From Bdellovibrionota bacterium (GTDB lineage Bacteria; Bdellovibrionota_C; UBA2361; JAAYZI01), in contig JBMNIF010000002.1 in assembly GCA_050950765.1 (NCBI GenBank), positions 512,001-576,000 of the forward strand: a stretch of 64,000 nucleotides of DNA. Reading direction: 5' to 3'. A program made the translations under genes and the position numbers. Numbering within the stretch: position 1 is the first letter of the stretch; every line of letters starts with the position of its first letter. The notes below the pieces were generated by a model that worked only from the letters and a program-made list of their open reading frames with translations, was not told where the DNA came from and searched no databases. Below are positions 21,330-59,588 of the stretch, piece by piece.

Positions 21330-21362
21330 TTTTAACCTCCGTTAAGATCTAGCCGATTCGTT
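21330..21362 (-). repeat. Partial copy of the dispersed ~70-bp repeat
   Basis: Reverse complement GAATCGGCTAGATCTTAACGGAGGTTAAAA vs GAATTGGCTAGATATTTACGGAGGTTAAAA at 8255-8284. Confidence 0.6.
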
Positions 21363-22298: not shown

Positions 22299-22793
22299 TT
22301 ATCGATCAGGATACCGTTGAGATCTACTCTTATATTTACTACCGTTTCCGAAGCGTCCACCGGAACTTTTTGCAGGACGTGCTGGATGTTTTTTCTGCGG
22401 CTGCGCCAACTGTTCATGCGACGTTAAAACTGCGCTCTGCCTTGATTCATCAATAGGGAAGGGTAAGTTACGGGGTTGGGACTCATTCCAGAGGTCTTCT
22501 TCAAGTGCAAATTCAATAATTGAAGCGACGTGATCAAGTGGTACAAGTGTAACCTTACCTTCCATGCGATGTCCTTCCTTACCCGTGATCTGTTTTCCCC
22601 TGACGAACTTAGTATCTGCGATAGTAACGATCTCCGGCTCTGTCATGCCGTACCAATGAGAAGATGATTTTGTGTAAAGCATAATAACGGAACCAAGCTT
22701 TACTTCACCTTCTTCCGGAGCTGCCTTTGCAACCTTAGCGGCTGTTTTTGTAGCGGTTTTAGTACCTGTTTTTGCTGTCTTTGCGGCTACCAT
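22299..22793 (-). CDS. Hypothetical protein (Lys/Ala/Thr-rich N-terminus, small beta domain, basic tail)
   Basis: 164-aa ORF in an otherwise empty interval with typical codon usage. Confidence 0.6.
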   Translation of the reverse strand: MVAAKTAKTGTKTATKTAAKVAKAAPEEGEVKLGSVIMLYTKSSSHWYGMTEPEIVTIADTKFVRGKQITGKEGHRMEGKVTLVPLDHVASIIEFALEEDLWNESQPRNLPFPIDESRQSAVLTSHEQLAQPQKKHPARPAKSSGGRFGNGSKYKSRSQRYPDR

Positions 22794-22964
22794 AATATCT
22801 GCCTTATTAAATTATTACTAAATTATCACTATTATTTTTATCATTAAATTTATTTCCTCAAGTAGGTAGTGAGGAGTATCAAGATAGGTTTATCGTATAA
22901 GAAGTTATTGAAAATTGAAAGATCTTTGAATTATGCTTTTAATCTAATCAATCTACACCACCTC

Positions 22965-23136
22965 TTAACGTTTTTTTACAAGGAAAAACATTCCTTTGCT
23001 CTGATTATAAGATATCTACTTATAATCGATAAGGTATAGCAGGGAAGGCTCAAACTTTAGATGCGACAGCTGCACTAAGTACAGCCGTCGCATTTCACAT
23101 GGTGTAAGAACTTATCTTCCCTGCTACCGTTCCTTG
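22965..23136 (-). ncRNA. Putative structured 3' RNA element, cassette A
   Basis: 87 bp identical to 24270-24356; outer stem GUAGCAGGGAAG/CUUCCCUGCUAU encloses a 14-bp hairpin (23062-23092) whose G-U pairs form only on the minus strand. Confidence 0.5.
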
Positions 23137-23793
23137 TTAGGATTCGCATTCCTGCTCGAAGTTAGCACACTCCTTTAAGAGAGTTGCAAGCTCCTTAACT
23201 ACGGAAGGCTTAAGTTTCTTAAGCACTTCTGCATCAATAGTGCGTAGAGCTTTTAAGATCTTTACAAAAGGCTGCAGTACATCTTCTGCCACCTCTTCCG
23301 CAAACTTATTCGCAGAAGTATCTTTGTTGCCGTCTTTAGGAAAAGCTGACGATAGCTTTTTTCCGCAATCCATCAAGGATTCGATTTCAGCCGCGAAGCA
23401 TTCCCCCATATTTAAAGAGGAAAGCTTTTTAAGCAACATAACGAAGTGGCGAATACACTCCAGCAAAGCATCTACAACTTTCCTAGTTGAACTATTTGTA
23501 GGCGCTGAGAGAGCGTCTAAAATCGTCCCTCTAAAACCTTGTAGTGCTTCTGCCCACTTCTCAAAAAGTCCATTCAGAAGAACTCCGCCGTCCTTCTCCT
23601 TTTTCCCTTTTTTGAGAAAATCGAGTATACCTTGAAGAGCGCTATTCAGCTCTTTCTGTGTCACGTTCGGATCTTTCGCTTGTTCAATGATCATTGCGAT
23701 AGAGACTTTGAACCAACAATCACGTTTGGCAATACGTGCAGCTTTGCGCGCATCATCATATGCGCTTTGCCAAGGGGGGGTAGTGATGCTCAT
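23137..23793 (-). CDS. Hypothetical all-alpha protein, cassette A (paralogue of 24443-25168)
   Basis: SD AGGAGGTG; shares LLNGLFE/LVNGLFK, P..VK and C-terminal ES-stop with the neighbouring ORF. Confidence 0.75.
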   Translation of the reverse strand: MSITTPPWQSAYDDARKAARIAKRDCWFKVSIAMIIEQAKDPNVTQKELNSALQGILDFLKKGKKEKDGGVLLNGLFEKWAEALQGFRGTILDALSAPTNSSTRKVVDALLECIRHFVMLLKKLSSLNMGECFAAEIESLMDCGKKLSSAFPKDGNKDTSANKFAEEVAEDVLQPFVKILKALRTIDAEVLKKLKPSVVKELATLLKECANFEQECES

Positions 23794-23835
23794 AAGAGCA
23801 CCTCCTTTCTATGTTGTAAAACAACCCACAATTTA

Positions 23836-24010
23836 ACTTCGCTCGGTTCGGTAAACCTAGCAAAGTAGGCAGAAAACCTTCTTTATCAACCTTTATCACA
23901 ACACACGTGAAAAGTTTGATATTCTCCCTGCCTTGATGAGGTTAGGAAAACTCTAAAACCATCAAGACAGGAGTTATACCCTTTACATCTACCCTTTAAA
24001 TTGTAAAAAA
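23836..24010 (-). promoter_or_regulatory. Conserved promoter/structured 5' leader, cassette A
   Basis: 52 bp (23959-24010) identical to 25296-25347; TATAAC followed by hairpin CCUGUCUUGAUG/CAUCAAGGCAGG. Confidence 0.55.
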
Positions 24011-24269
24011 CGGATGCTACTACGTGCTGCTATATGCTATTTACATTAGCAAAATAGTACTTTCGTAAATTAGAACACCTTAACGAGATAAGACACTATA
24101 TTTAAAGCGTCTTTAAACAGTTCCTTATTGTAATCAAGAAAACACCTTTTTTTCAAGTCAGGAAGGGCTTGAAAGGGCTTACCTTTTATTTTGCCTTAAA
24201 TATTTTTGATTGCGTAAAAGGGGTATTTTTAAAGGAAAAAAGCACTATGCTTTTAAGTCATAAGATCTT

Positions 24270-24442
24270 TTAACGTTTTTTTACAAGGAAAAACATTCCT
24301 TTGCTCTGATTATAAGATATCTACTTATAATCGATAAGGTATAGCAGGGAAGGCTCTCAAACTTTAGTTAGGTGCGGCAAGTCACATCTGCAACTTGCCG
24401 CACTTTCCGAAGTGCGAAAACCTCTTCTGCTATCCCTTTTTT
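24270..24442 (-). ncRNA. Putative structured 3' RNA element, cassette B
   Basis: Same architecture as 22965-23136, with an inner hairpin of different sequence (GUGCGGCAAGUUGC/GUGACUUGCCGCAC, 24372-24403) at the same position. Confidence 0.5.
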
Positions 24443-25168
24443 TTAGGATTCGCTGGAGTCGTCGTCAGGATCTTCGTAGTCTTCCAATAGATCCTTGAGT
24501 CTCGCTTCCGCGTTGCCTGTGGGATCTTCTACCCCATTAGCTTCACGAAGATACGCTTCAAGACACAAAACGAAACGAAGCATATCTTCCGAGGCATCTA
24601 CGAATTTCTTAACTATAGCAGGATCCGCCGTTTTAAACACGCGTTTCTCGCTGAACAAAGCGCTTAAGAGCCTCTTGAGAGGTTCTACCGTACCTTTTAA
24701 TTCGGTATCCAGAAGCTTCTTAAGCGAAGTTCCTCCCTGATCGCCTTCGCAGTTTTCGAAGAAGCTTTTATACAGCTCCCCATGATAATCCAGCAAGCCT
24801 TTGATCCTCTTTATTGCACTATTCGTGCAGCCTTCTCTCTCAATTACGATTGAGAGAGCATAATCGAAGATCTCCAGCACAGCATCTAAGAACTTCTCGA
24901 CTACTGGAAGAAGGTCAGGCGCATTAAGCGTTTTTTTGTCAGCGAATACAACTTTCCTGATAATTACGCCGAGCTTCTTCAGCTCTTCCGTCATCGCCTT
25001 AAAAAGTCCGTTTACAAGGGCGGTTTCGTTTTCGCTCTTAGCTAACGCTTCGAGGAAGATTGAAATCAATACTTGCAGAGATTTCGTTAGATCGTACGCA
25101 GCTTGAAAAATTCGAGCCTTGTGACACTTACAATTAGGGTCATAAAAACCCTGCTTTTCGATGCTCAT
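24443..25168 (-). CDS. Hypothetical all-alpha protein, cassette B
   Basis: ATG at 25168 (MSIEK) after SD GGAGGTG, matching the MSITT start of cassette A; acidic tail. Confidence 0.75.
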   Translation of the reverse strand: MSIEKQGFYDPNCKCHKARIFQAAYDLTKSLQVLISIFLEALAKSENETALVNGLFKAMTEELKKLGVIIRKVVFADKKTLNAPDLLPVVEKFLDAVLEIFDYALSIVIEREGCTNSAIKRIKGLLDYHGELYKSFFENCEGDQGGTSLKKLLDTELKGTVEPLKRLLSALFSEKRVFKTADPAIVKKFVDASEDMLRFVLCLEAYLREANGVEDPTGNAEARLKDLLEDYEDPDDDSSES

Positions 25169-25191
25169 ATGAGCACCTCCTTCCATAAATT

Positions 25192-25347
25192 ACTTCACTC
25201 GGTAAACCAAGCAAAGAAGACAGAAAACCTTTCACTTCGGTGAAAGTTTAAAGTTTGATATTCCCTGCCTTGATGAAGTTAGAAAAACTCTAAAGCCATC
25301 AAGACAGGAGTTATACCCTTTACATCTACCCTTTAAATTGTAAAAAA
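25192..25347 (-). promoter_or_regulatory. Conserved promoter/structured 5' leader, cassette B
   Basis: Homologous to 23836-24010, including the 12-bp hairpin. Confidence 0.55.
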
Positions 25348-25675
25348 ACGCACACCCCCTATATATTATCATATCTTAACAAAATAGTGCTTCCGTAAAC
25401 TAGATAAGTCACCTTATTTGGAACATTTTTTAAAATCTCCTCAACTTATTAAATGAGGGAGATCTTTTTTAAGCGCCAAGACCTTGAAAGGATTTACTTT
25501 TAAGTGAGTGTTAAATATCTTCTAATTGTGTCAAAATCATACTTTAAAGGAACAACGTACGGTCTAAAAACAGACTTTACACCTTCCAGATTGTGATAAT
25601 TTGAATTATTGAAGAGAGCAAGGCGTGCAGCAACCTACTTCGCTTTTATTTTAGAGAGATATAAGGATTTTAATT

Positions 25676-29635: not shown

Positions 29636-29776
29636 CACTGGGGACAGCAGAACGGGCTAATACTGAAAACTGAATTGGCTAGTTTTCTACGAAGGTTAAA
29701 GTGCCGCCCTTCAGGGACGATTGAGCGGTCTGCTACTAAAAACTGAATTAGCTAGATCTTTACGAAGGTCAAAAAT
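29636..29776 (+). repeat. Dispersed ~70-bp repeat family, locus 2 (two tandem units)
   Basis: GGGACAGCAGAACGGGCTAATACTGAAAACTGAATTGGCTAG...ACGAAGGTTAAA, followed by a second diverged unit. Confidence 0.85.
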
Positions 29777-57539: not shown

Positions 57540-58505
57540 TTAGGAAAGTTCCAGCAAGTCAGAACCTCCATTAGAATCTGCCTTATCAAAATCTACTTCA
57601 TTAAGGCTTCCAGCAGGACCTCCATCGCTGCCTCTCGATTCAAGAAAGTCATCGAGGGATTGGTCTACACGTTCTCCCATTGTTCTATGAAAGTCTTCTT
57701 CAGGAACATGTTCAATAAAATTTTCTATCCTTTCTATCCTTTCTTTTAAAGTGTCTGCTATTTCAGGACCACACTCTTCTGCTAAGCGCTTAATTTCCTT
57801 AAGATAAGAAGAAAGGTTCCTAGGATCTCTATCTTTAACTTGTTCTTCAGAGATTTTTAAATAATTGTCAATACACCTCTTCCTTACATTTTGGTAAGAA
57901 TCTTTAAGTAATTGTGCATCATCTTCAGACAATTTAATATTTGCCTTTTCATAAGAGAACTTAATATCTTCTATTAAGCTATCGGCAAAAGCTACATCAT
58001 CTTTATTTACTCCCTGCTTTTCTACTATTTGTTGCAAATGATACTTTAAAGAGGAAATTGAGTTCTCACAACAACGCTGTAAAAATTCATCGAGCAGCTC
58101 ACTTTGATATTTTTTAATTTTTTCAATTGCTCCACTTGCAAACGAGACACTACCACTTGCAGCGTACTCCTCCAAACATTGCAAATAGTGCTGAATACCG
58201 TTTCTTCGTGCTGAGAGTAAACAAGATTGCAGCTCTCCAAGCTCTTCTGCACTAAACAGATTAGTATTAGAAGAACCAACTTTAGCTTTACGCATCTCAT
58301 CAAAGACCTTATCTGCTCTAGCAACAGCCCCATACTTGGCATAAAATTTTAAGCGCCACAGGAAAAAATCTTTGGAGACACTTGGACTGAGAAAAGACGC
58401 TTCTTCTAGTGGAGGACTTTCGGAACCCTCTTTAGGATCTATGCCTTGACGATCTTGACGAGTTCGTTTTTGATATGACGGATTATCTGATTTTATTGGC
58501 GGCAT
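57540..58505 (-). CDS. Hypothetical helical protein with disordered termini (paralogue of 58758-59588)
   Basis: Shares RLKFYAK.G, LQSCLLSAR.NGIQH and YLKISEEQVKD.D.RNLS.YL.EIKRLAEECG with the neighbour. Confidence 0.75.
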   Translation of the reverse strand: MPPIKSDNPSYQKRTRQDRQGIDPKEGSESPPLEEASFLSPSVSKDFFLWRLKFYAKYGAVARADKVFDEMRKAKVGSSNTNLFSAEELGELQSCLLSARRNGIQHYLQCLEEYAASGSVSFASGAIEKIKKYQSELLDEFLQRCCENSISSLKYHLQQIVEKQGVNKDDVAFADSLIEDIKFSYEKANIKLSEDDAQLLKDSYQNVRKRCIDNYLKISEEQVKDRDPRNLSSYLKEIKRLAEECGPEIADTLKERIERIENFIEHVPEEDFHRTMGERVDQSLDDFLESRGSDGGPAGSLNEVDFDKADSNGGSDLLELS

Positions 58506-58757: not shown

Positions 58758-59588
58758 TTATTTTAAAGTGTCTACTATTTTAAGACCACATTCTTCTGCT
58801 AAGCGCTTAATTTCCTCAAGATAAGGGGAAAGGTTCCTAGAATCTCCATCTTTAACTTGTTCTTCAGAGATTTTTAAATAAATTTCAATACTCTTTTGCC
58901 TTACACTTTTGTAAGAATCTTTAAGGAATTGTGCGACCTCTTCAGGCATTTCACGCTTTGCATATACATAGTAGAGCTCGAGATCATTTTTAAATTGATC
59001 AGCATCAGCGATATACGCTTTTAATACATTAACAACATCTAGATCGATATTTAGATCTATTTCATACTTTTTTAATTTGGCGGCATAATTTTTTAATATT
59101 TCAACATCACTTAGTTTTACTATCTTGTTCAATTTATACTTAGCAGAAGGAATCGCTACCGCCAAACATTCCCTAAAAAGTTCATCAACCCACTCCTGAG
59201 TAGCAGGAGCCTTTTCAGTACCCAGAACTTTTTCATATTGTGTAATTTTATTAAGTGTTTTTAGTGCAAGCCCAACATCACCACCTTGAGCGTACTCCTT
59301 AAAGCATTGCAGCAAGTGCTGAATACCGTTTTTTCGTGCTGAGAGTAAACAAGATTGCAGTTTTTCGAGCTCTTCTGCACTAAGTAGATCGTGCTCACGT
59401 AATAAGTCAAAGTACCTATGAGTCCTATCAACATTTCCGATCTTGGCATAAAATTTTAAGCGAGCTAATAGATCATCTACATTAGGTAAAGACGCTTCCT
59501 CTAATGGAGAACTTTCGGGGGAACTCCCTTGAGAGGGATTAGAACCTTGAGAGTGGTTAGGAGGTGTGGAGCTTAAGTTTATCGACAT
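58758..59588 (-). CDS. Hypothetical helical protein, C-terminally shortened paralogue
   Basis: Ser/Pro-rich N-terminus; TAA replaces the GAA codon of the paralogue after DTLK. Confidence 0.72.
   Translation of the reverse strand: MSINLSSTPPNHSQGSNPSQGSSPESSPLEEASLPNVDDLLARLKFYAKIGNVDRTHRYFDLLREHDLLSAEELEKLQSCLLSARKNGIQHLLQCFKEYAQGGDVGLALKTLNKITQYEKVLGTEKAPATQEWVDELFRECLAVAIPSAKYKLNKIVKLSDVEILKNYAAKLKKYEIDLNIDLDVVNVLKAYIADADQFKNDLELYYVYAKREMPEEVAQFLKDSYKSVRQKSIEIYLKISEEQVKDGDSRNLSPYLEEIKRLAEECGLKIVDTLK

Follow-up and report, generated by a model that had tools for sequence, protein, structure and literature searches.

Two tandem units with folded flanks around diverged orphan genes in a member of the Bdellovibrionota: a possible expression frame for fast-evolving proteins

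Why should two neighboring genes differ strongly when parts of the non-coding sequence around them are identical? This question is raised by a locus in a 64,000-nt stretch of DNA (the window) from an uncultured bioreactor bacterium of the Bdellovibrionota, whose genome assembly (2.64 Mb, 94% complete) is repeat-rich, containing 39,059 self-matches along with numerous tandem duplicates. The original prediction, made from the window alone, held that two direct-repeat units of ~1.3 kb enclose variable cargo genes in flanks that are the functional constant. Both units were confirmed, each on the minus strand and composed of upstream region, leader, ORF and tail: unit 1 at 22932..24237, with ORF P0001, and unit 2 at 24246..25552, with ORF P0002 (approximate ends, from shared blocks 24228-24237 and 22932-22942, and 25543-25552 and 24246-24256, respectively). 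An 87-bp tail block (22965..23051 in unit 1, 24270..24356 in unit 2) was identical at 87/87 positions and a 52-bp block (23959-24010 and 25296-25347) at 52/52, with mismatches flanking each block at both edges. The tail block contains a 9-7-9 palindrome (23003-23027 in unit 1, 24308-24332 in unit 2), and its unit 1 copy lies 170-260 nt before the point where the next gene (22299-22793) starts. Between the units, identity was 57% in the distal and 68% in the middle upstream part, 97% in the promoter-proximal block, 60% in the proximal leader, 50% in the ORF, 58% in the variable tail and 100% in the tail block. Thus, homology spans the whole unit and near-identity is confined to two blocks. When the region was compared with the 2.64-Mb host genome by BLASTN, only these two copies were found. 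The locus has one orphan gene and one SOR/SNZ gene as neighbors.

The encoded proteins, P0001 (23137..23793, minus strand, 218 aa, no predicted membrane segment) and P0002 (24443..25168, minus strand, 241 aa, with an acidic tail), are both orphans. As anticipated, their likeness is patchy, with a common MSI start, NGLF and ES-stop; BLASTP aligned 42/170 identical residues (25%; pairwise E 2e-5), and judging from their sequences they are true paralogs. P0002 has a homolog, P0003 (332 aa), known here as a protein alone, which is 53-60% identical to it overall and identical in the last 23 residues, a mosaic pattern as far as the protein sequences tell. The idea of variable cargo was therefore borne out in that the gene body differs between samples in the same frame (see below), but not in the sense of unrelated genes, since P0001, P0002 and P0003 are homologs. 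At same-residue columns, 63-67% of codons were identical between P0001 and P0002, compared with 41 +/- 7%, and at most 62.5%, in a control set of 150 ordinary paralog pairs that are 22-32% identical; this excess implies that the protein evolved fast for its age or that patches were converted. Diversifying selection in the sense of dN/dS >1 found no support, the Nei-Gojobori ratio being ~0.4 on four alignments. ORFs were intact in both units and in the cluster variants.

No match over cut-off was obtained for P0001-P0003 in Pfam, PHROGs, PADLOC or NCBIfam. Homolog searches returned P0001 alone among 814 candidates, P0002 and P0003 among 834 candidates for P0002, and none among 386 shorter proteins. 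A profile run against 1.84 billion representatives recovered the three input proteins and P0010, which was rejected as a 1964-aa repeat protein whose score was summed over 12 repeats. A feature atlas gave no usable match for P0002 and a best value of 0.77 for P0001. Structure models did not place the proteins in an ordinary known family: they were of low confidence (pLDDT 56 for the all-helical P0002 model and 45 for P0003) and had no clear Foldseek match (for P0002, best E 0.31; among helical bundles, Z up to 8.1).

All four flanks fold strongly. Tail folds had z scores of -7.4 and -8.0 and leader folds of -5.0 and -6.0, and no fold was equaled by any of 200 shuffles. The coding strand was better folded than the opposite strand by 12-22 kcal/mol in every flank, and leaders had 16 and 12 G-U pairs on the coding strand versus 1 and 2 on the opposite strand; G-U counts in the tails do not tell the strands apart (5 versus 5, 8 versus 5). 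Since the flanks fold best on the coding strand, we infer that they are read as mRNA leader and tail. Among 442 genes folded, those for P0001 and P0002 ranked 1 and 5 for flank folding; a flagellin-like gene and pilin-like genes, named by eye from sequence, likewise ranked high. The proposal that the flanks act as RNA or recombination signals thus stood in its first half, folds beyond shuffles making them structured and probably functional as RNA, and was not supported in its second, as no site-specific recombination signal or adjacent recombinase was found.

In the leader, the first predicted hairpin lies at 23926..23972 in unit 1 (minus strand; a 14-bp stem including 3 G-U pairs) and at 25263..25309 in unit 2 (minus strand). 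In the tail, a closing stem encloses an inner hairpin: the domain at 23036..23127 in unit 1 has a 12-bp closing stem around a 15-bp hairpin (23061-23093), and that at 24336..24438 in unit 2 has a 15-bp hairpin at 24372-24403 (both minus strand). Both inner hairpins are unbroken 15-pair stems that differ in sequence and share their shape. The identical blocks take in loops and covariation is absent; recent exchange or conversion would explain this as well as selection would. On the coding strand the tail lacks a U-run. Searches against Rfam gave six weak matches at this locus, all far below gathering scores, and a tRNA only at 11 other loci.

The very strong SD sequences that had been noted are present: AGGAGGTG, an 8-mer preceding only 6/2087 called genes, stands before both ORFs (23799-23806 and 25174-25181). 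In each unit a predicted 7-bp hairpin (23785..23806 and 25160..25181, minus strand) pairs the 3' half of the SD with the first codons and so covers half of the SD and the AUG; in both full-length folds this half has a predicted unpaired probability <=0.02. Among 503 genes that have a good SD, predicted start-site occlusion here ranked at the 95th percentile; most other cassette genes do not have an occluded start site. Upstream, extended -10-like sites (TGnTAAnnT) at 24043..24051 in unit 1 and 25373..25381 in unit 2, with a second one at 25363-25371 (all minus strand), are candidate promoters by pattern match. A consensus promoter scanner reported no promoter at either leader, and scores of the size seen at the leaders also precede 12% of random intergenic positions.

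Sequences from other samples point to exchange of the enclosed gene. In RNA run X15, one contig (record 18; 552 nt at a depth of 18.6) leads from 30 nt of unit 2 leader (25221-25192) to the unit 2 tail (24458-24356) through ~419 nt that match neither ORF at 80% likeness, and a second departs from the leader at 25209 into at least 255 unlike letters with an SD-like word. In DNA run X14, a contig joins 25416 to 24155 via 26 other letters, a unit order absent from the window; three of its tail variants are also present in record 18. Judged by their geometry, public contigs place at least one gene body, and probably a second, besides P0001 and P0002 within this frame, and show a rearranged array. 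The extra bodies are putative ORFs, and recombination may have caused the replacement between samples. A joint of 23958 to 25296 in X10 was not accepted as a variant, as it passes across the 52-bp block and could have arisen in assembly. Also left aside as evidence were gaps in cover: the P0001 ORF is not covered in X14, and the two RNA runs (unstranded contigs) cover both ORFs at a depth of up to 19 but not the neighboring genes, with RNA cover ending at 24356. Contig ends that resemble graph branch points occur in each RNA run, at 24453 and 25221.

The proteins were found in 0/40 other genomes and the neighboring gene P0007 in 0/5 relatives, and pattern scans of viral, phage and plasmid collections gave no hit. 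DNA matches in 2/90 relatives were rejected as only 37-nt and AT-rich; pattern matches in five viral and three metagenome sequences had no further likeness, and two alphaproteobacterial ones lay in a different context.

Elsewhere in the host genome, eight other flank families have the same design around diverged ORFs. The design therefore recurs genome-wide with other flank sequences and is not special to this locus. In Pfam, 20/20 other cassette-type proteins had no match over cut-off. A 19-nt leader motif, ANAA-N8-GTAGA(A/T)G, defined post hoc, lies at 23986..24004 in unit 1, inside the 52-bp identical block, and at 25323..25341 in unit 2 (both minus strand). It is common to 4/9 flank families and, by pattern, absent from the other 5/9, and this putative motif across orphan-gene leaders, recognized after the fact, is new here. 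It was not enriched over a reversed control in the host genome, nor generally in 40 genomes of the order, and 11/15 matches in the nearest relative fell inside long open frames. A likeness to ops suggested RfaH-like antitermination; this idea was set aside, as the host genome has only one NusG-family gene.

We consider it somewhat probable that the locus is an expression frame like the PeSL elements of T4-type phages, built around a fast-evolving conflict protein and kept by RNA-structure selection and homologous exchange. Each unit would be a self-contained gene: its own promoter would be followed by a folded leader (~150-240 nt), in which the final hairpin hides the start codon together with half of the SD, then by a single orphan helical ORF, and lastly by a folded tail serving to end or protect the mRNA. 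The frame may be kept by selection on RNA shape, hairpins holding their form while letters change, and also by homologous recombination or gene conversion via the identical blocks. Such exchange would also alter number, order and version of units, a PeSL-like shuffling that would need no dedicated recombinase. More tentatively, a stable mRNA could be translated at a damped level until it is opened by a trans factor, perhaps one that binds the shared 19-nt motif. Whether the proteins serve in an arms race as conflict proteins is about evenly balanced; export via the type III-like machinery of the genome, described below, would be their single most likely route, although unlikely overall. Overall, the data point to swapping of gene versions by ordinary recombination; they speak less for a mobile element of a new kind or for a toxin-antitoxin pair of the classic type.

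A simpler account, a plain tandem duplication in a repeat-rich genome followed by local gene conversion and relaxed selection on orphan genes that are dispensable, with the folds being no more than strong UTRs of well-expressed genes, appears unlikely. It is consistent with the many self-matches and tandem duplicates, the loop-including identical blocks that lack covariation, the high-ranking flagellin- and pilin-like genes and the dN/dS of ~0.4, and the unit 1 tail block may just be the upstream region of the gene at 22299-22793. Against it stand the additional gene bodies within this frame, the ORFs that are intact in both units and the cluster variants, hairpins whose shape is kept while letters change, and the recurrence of the design in eight other flank families.

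A broader scheme would have chromosome-wide single-gene cassettes, with unrelated folded frames, one leader motif and interchangeable, fast-evolving proteins that stay untranslated until export by type III-like/Tad machinery, in a probably predatory host; we regard it as doubtful. SctJ-like, SctV-like, FliN-like and Tad genes occur outside the flagellar cluster of the host genome, with Tad genes beside one SctV-like gene and further SctJ-, SctV- and FliN-like genes present. The SctV- and SctJ-like matches exceed Pfam cut-offs and fall under the curated NCBIfam SctV and SctJ cut-offs. T6SS and VirB4 were not found in the host genome (PF05943, PF03135). The S/T/P/N/Q share of the N-termini shows no clear enrichment (0.29 and 0.21; genome median 0.25), and 19-nt motif scores are not high before the type III-like/Tad clusters. 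For the Kil (Tad) pilus of Myxococcus with its needleless T3SS*, effectors are hypothesised rather than identified in the parts of the reports available to us (PMC12075869, PMC12428579). As there, Tad genes adjoin an SctV-like gene in the host genome, judged here from genes alone; unlike that setting as described, the cassettes lie outside the type III-like/Tad clusters. Type III-like and Tad machinery as an export route is a new and possible proposal here.

Tandem copies are typical of type I toxin-antitoxin loci. A module of this kind with a large toxin, in which the SD hairpin locks the mRNA and a ~125-nt plus-strand antisense RNA, starting at TATAAT within the tail palindrome, covers the tail, seems to us very unlikely. 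The folded 5' and 3' ends, the tandem arrangement and the predicted sequestration of the SD (its 3' half unpaired at <=0.02) by a nearby anti-SD are all type I-like, the tail palindrome does contain TATAAT, and in unit 2 a T run directly follows the closing stem on the plus strand. However, neither unit 1 nor the X14/X15 variant has this T run unbroken, the flanks contain no small ORF preceded by an SD, and a near-identical 5' part of the antitoxin around unlike toxins would be odd for cognate pairs. Leader-tail pairing was not beyond shuffles (110/200 and 24/200 as good), unlike the 5'-3' long-distance pairing described for some type I families. In the available part of T1TAdb (PMC8594479), type I toxins are 20-60 aa and usually hydrophobic, with mRNAs of 150-400 nt and antisense RNAs of 60-200 nt; the mRNAs here would be ~1 kb, and the proteins (218-332 aa) have no hydrophobic segment (best 19-residue Kyte-Doolittle 1.2-1.4).

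Less probable still is a site-specific cassette system (integron-, rAID- or pdif-like) using the 9-7-9 palindrome as recombinase site. The palindrome with its 7-nt center is conserved in both tails, cargo varies between samples, and the host genome encodes three tyrosine recombinases; yet the nearest lies ~63 kb off, the exact palindrome occurs in these two units only, flank sequence differs locus by locus, cargoes are paralogs, and variant junctions differ (25192, 25209, inside the ORF end). An attC site has R'' and R' boxes after the stop; no such pair follows either stop, and dif-like spacing is lacking. No integron integrase scored over the cut-off in the 94% complete genome (TIGR02249, best 49.8 bits versus a cut-off of 265). 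A retron or diversity-generating retroelement finds no reverse transcriptase in that genome (PF00078, 0 matches), and its six Y1 transposase copies have ends unlike these flanks.

If our preferred reading of a PeSL-like frame is right, shuffling of orphan genes of a type described in phages seems to run in many frames of one cellular genome, the frames being folded mRNA leaders and tails with no Rfam match around proteins of no known family. Should these be conflict proteins, frame and leader motif could serve to catalogue an entire arsenal that escapes homology searches; should they merely be drifting paralogs, the locus cautions that UTR structure and gene conversion can mimic conserved flanks around a diverged ORF. 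Were the export reading true, the effectors of needleless type III predation, still to be identified, would have named candidates, and a new RNA control element would be added.

A full-text literature search for this architecture in bacteria, with most subscription papers outside its scope, found no paper. Of known systems, rAID arrays (10.1101/471110, as far as its consulted part goes) and integron cassettes resemble it in co-directional variable genes between repeated intergenic sequence and in a likely role in bacterial conflict. It differs from them in that there is no recombinase at the array head (XerD-like in rAID arrays), no attC and no immunity-family homology, and in having two units only in this strain and a promoter region of its own for each. 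PeSLs of T4-type phages are, in the portions consulted (PMC2839356, PMC4122927), ~100-bp conserved non-coding blocks with promoter, stem-loop and SD that flank orphan ORFs and provide the homology that lets insertions, deletions and replacements occur with no recombinase; one motif occurs at ~50 sites in a genome, and mini-circles are a feature. In contrast to PeSLs so described, the units lie in two copies on a cellular chromosome, and no match came from phage or viral collections; flank families are specific to each locus, and each gene has a long folded leader and tail around a cargo from a paralog family. Where PeSLs have a sigma-70 promoter consensus and a stem-loop terminator, we found extended -10-like sites with scores near background and a strong predicted tail fold without a coding-strand U-run. 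As in PeSLs, a conserved non-coding block adjoins ORFans in variable regions, and the flanked ORF is replaced or lost between close relatives, as at the record 18 joint of X15 and the X14 junction.

The two-unit feature is real. Two tandem cassettes of ~1.3 kb lie on the minus strand, each with an upstream region, a leader, an ORF and a tail; the ORFs encode P0001 in unit 1 (23137-23793, 218 aa) and P0002 in unit 2 (24443-25168, 241 aa). Identity between units was confirmed for the 87-bp block (22965-23051 and 24270-24356) and the 52-bp block (23959-24010 and 25296-25347), as was strong divergence of the enclosed proteins (25% identity over 170 columns, pairwise E 2e-5). Homology spans the entire unit and not the blocks alone: identity is 57-68% in the upstream region, 97% in the block preceding the leader, 60% in the leader's proximal part, 50% across the ORF, 58% in the tail's opening part and 100% in the tail block. 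BLASTN, TBLASTN and profile searches detected no third copy in this genome (G000; 2.64 Mb, 5 contigs, 94% complete). Of 22 sequencing runs listed, 11 contained at least half of the query words, and these were digester, bioreactor, sludge or unspecified metagenomes. The pair is bordered by a divergent SOR/SNZ gene and by an orphan gene (22299-22793) whose product, P0007, was found in none of five relatives searched; four residues of its N-terminal repeat are missing in other strains (P0008, P0009; a 12-nt deletion in the DNA run X14).

Family, homolog and structure searches with P0001, P0002 and P0003 (a P0002 homolog) revealed no family, no fold and no homolog outside this set, and P0001 and P0002 look soluble and all-helical in predictions. 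Among same-residue columns, identical codons were used in 28/44, 34/54, 28/44 and 37/55 cases in four alignments (z 3.5-4.3 over saturation; control mean 41%, first 150 qualifying pairs). Because these values exceed both saturation and the control mean, the two proteins appear to be paralogs that diverged more recently than their 25% identity implies, or that were converted in part. Diversifying selection on the ORF, which had been proposed, was unsupported by the Nei-Gojobori estimates, dN (0.75-0.83) being below dS (1.8-2.1).

All four flanks folded better than 200/200 dinucleotide shuffles (z -5.0 to -8.0), and in each the coding strand was better than the opposite strand by 12-22 kcal/mol. 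Leaders had 16 and 12 G-U pairs on the coding strand versus 1 and 2 on the other; the tails had 5 versus 5 and 8 versus 5. When 442 genes (18 chosen cassette genes plus 424/586 candidates with long flanks; 5 mononucleotide shuffles each) were ranked by folded flanks, the P0001 and P0002 genes came 1st and 5th; rank 2 was a gene at C1:419841 and rank 4 a flagellin-like gene recognized by eye (C1:529943-530803). The predicted leader comprises three hairpins: one of 14 bp, a variable one in the middle, and one of 7 bp that pairs the first codons with the 3′ half of the SD AGGAGGTG. This SD half had an unpaired probability <=0.02 in full-length folds, and unfolding the start region would take 12.9 and 13.2 kcal/mol, which places the two genes at the 95th percentile of 503 good-SD genes. 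In the tail, a closing stem encloses an inner hairpin of 15 pairs, and a 9-7-9 palindrome follows. This inner hairpin differs in sequence between units with every pair maintained, which, in the predicted fold, points to selection on RNA structure, whereas the identical blocks are unchanged even in loops, which fits recent exchange. Since both patterns are present, two regimes can be distinguished in the flanks. The suggestion that flanks are the functional constant is partly supported by folding beyond shuffles and by strand preference, but the loop-inclusive identity also fits recent exchange. Leader-tail pairing was not beyond shuffles (110/200 and 24/200 as good), and an Rfam search of the region gave nothing near gathering score. 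A further 14-bp hairpin lies within the P0002 ORF (24547-24589), in the C-terminal part conserved with P0003.

Contigs from 4 of the 22 runs, all unstranded, were compared for variants. In the RNA run X15, one contig (record 18; 552 nt at depth 18.6) aligns at one end with 30 nt of the unit-2 leader (25221-25192) and at the other, with 5 differences, with the end of the ORF and the tail of unit 2 (24458-24356); its middle, ~419 nt with room for ~135 codons, lies on neither ORF at 80% likeness. A separate X15 contig breaks away from the leader at 25209, and the unlike letters that follow number at least 255 and include an SD-like word (summed depth bins). Judged from contig geometry, one further ORF in the same frame is well supported and a second is probable. 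An X14 contig joins 25416 to 24155 via 26 other letters, and therefore a unit-2-type upstream region occupies the unit-1-type place. Three tail variants are common to X14 and record 18, and two X14 tail changes, judged by eye against the predicted fold, preserve structure (an inner-hairpin loop insertion and G-U to A-U). P0003 (332 aa), recovered from Logan only, shows 53-60% identity with P0002, but the last 23 residues are the same in both. Variable cargo was upheld in that different bodies appear to occur between the same flanks (X15), but P0001 and P0002 are paralogs rather than unrelated cargo.

This genome is repeat-rich (39,059 self-matches). A scan of 2087 genes from our own gene caller for common upstream DNA with <50% protein identity gave 31 clusters, mostly insertion sequences or dispersed repeats. 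By our own reading nine share one design: the present pair and families at C1:51k with 347-351k, C2:625-628k, C2:1025-1029k, C2:1160k with 1227k, C3:77-79k, C3:567-568k, C3:682-686k and C1:354k with C3:202k. The flanks of these eight had no BLASTN match to those of the pair. Cas9-, cas1- and cas2-like genes recognized by eye (C2:1221204-1225580) adjoin another family's cassette (C2:1226813). The window also holds a second tandem pair of Pfam-less paralogs with common upstream DNA and N-termini rich in S/P/N (57540-58505, 58758-59588), a DDE transposase with many identical copies in the genome (30796-32211), and two copies (29641-29773, 21330-21359) of a dispersed intergenic repeat that precedes at least 16 unrelated genes; these two copies showed no strong RNA fold (z -0.5 and 0.1).

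A 19-nt word, ANAA-N8-GTAGA(A/T)G, was spotted by eye in cassette leaders and defined post hoc. Of its 27 matches in the genome, 15 fall within called genes and 12 between genes (C1:346749, 347463, 348540, 349591; C2:1227984, 537341, 536004; C3:375382, 426643, 79139, 78398, 77724), 10 at four flank families including the window's and 2 before single Pfam-less genes; all 12 precede orphan-type genes. Of 936 long upstream regions, 10 carried it in sense and 0 in antisense; genome-wide it was not enriched over a reversed control, and in the nearest relative 11/15 matches fell inside long open frames. Leave-one-family-out matrices placed 11/20 tested leaders at or above the 99.6th percentile, one from a family absent from training, and missed 9. 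Because promoter-like sites, with scores near background, lie 6-49 nt upstream, the motif may be transcribed. By eye, leaders at L021 (C1:347-350 kb) and L026 (C3:77-79 kb) carry, in this order, a -10-like hexamer, the word GGTGATC and the motif; these families, split by the scan, may descend from one frame.

Three FHIPEP-family genes were detected in this genome, and also in another (G001). SctJ-like genes at C1:17k and C2:265k adjoin divergent sigma-70 factors, and Tad genes adjoin one SctV-like gene, within a cluster with kinases. Three regions, C1:16-22 kb (L040), C2:258-268 kb and C3:601-617 kb (L041), contain type III-like, non-flagellar genes for export (SctJ-, FliN-, SctV-like, TPR). 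In the accessible text of PMC12428579, co-occurrence of Kil and T3SS* is apparently confined to Cystobacterinae, and that of PMC12075869 and PMC12428579 presents Myxococcus Kil/T3SS* effectors as hypothesised, not identified. The present loci may extend this co-occurrence beyond Cystobacterinae. Our boldest reading, and an improbable one, is that the motif ties together a whole set of predation effectors destined for export.

The most likely explanation, which we favor with some reserve, is a promoter-leader-ORF-tail unit with an RNA-structured frame, homologous exchange and fast-evolving cargo. The frame would be maintained through RNA structure and homogenized by exchange, which would also swap gene versions and change unit number; the cargo would be a fast-evolving family, probably in biological conflict, its translation damped. 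Plain duplication with conversion and drift, with which loop-inclusive identity agrees and maintained hairpin pairs and further gene bodies in the frame do not, is fairly unlikely. A module of the type I toxin-antitoxin kind, in which an antisense RNA would cover the tail, is doubtful: predicted SD occlusion is common to type I toxin mRNAs and the units, but the proteins differ from such toxins in size and hydrophobicity as given in the accessible text of PMC8594479. A recombinase cassette is very improbable, since rAID arrays, as far as 10.1101/471110 was available, have a recombinase and integron cassettes have attC boxes, and the units have neither. Searches of the genome with one family each were negative for an integron integrase, a reverse transcriptase, the T6SS sheath, VirB4 and a second NusG. 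Full-text literature yielded no paper with the same architecture in bacteria, subscription papers being mostly outside its scope and supplements possibly holding cases. Compared with the promoter-early stem-loop (PeSL) cassettes of T4-type phages, as described in the available parts of PMC2839356 and PMC4122927, the units are chromosomal, with locus-specific flanks and a candidate promoter and terminator; they are thus not PeSL members, but share the same working principle.
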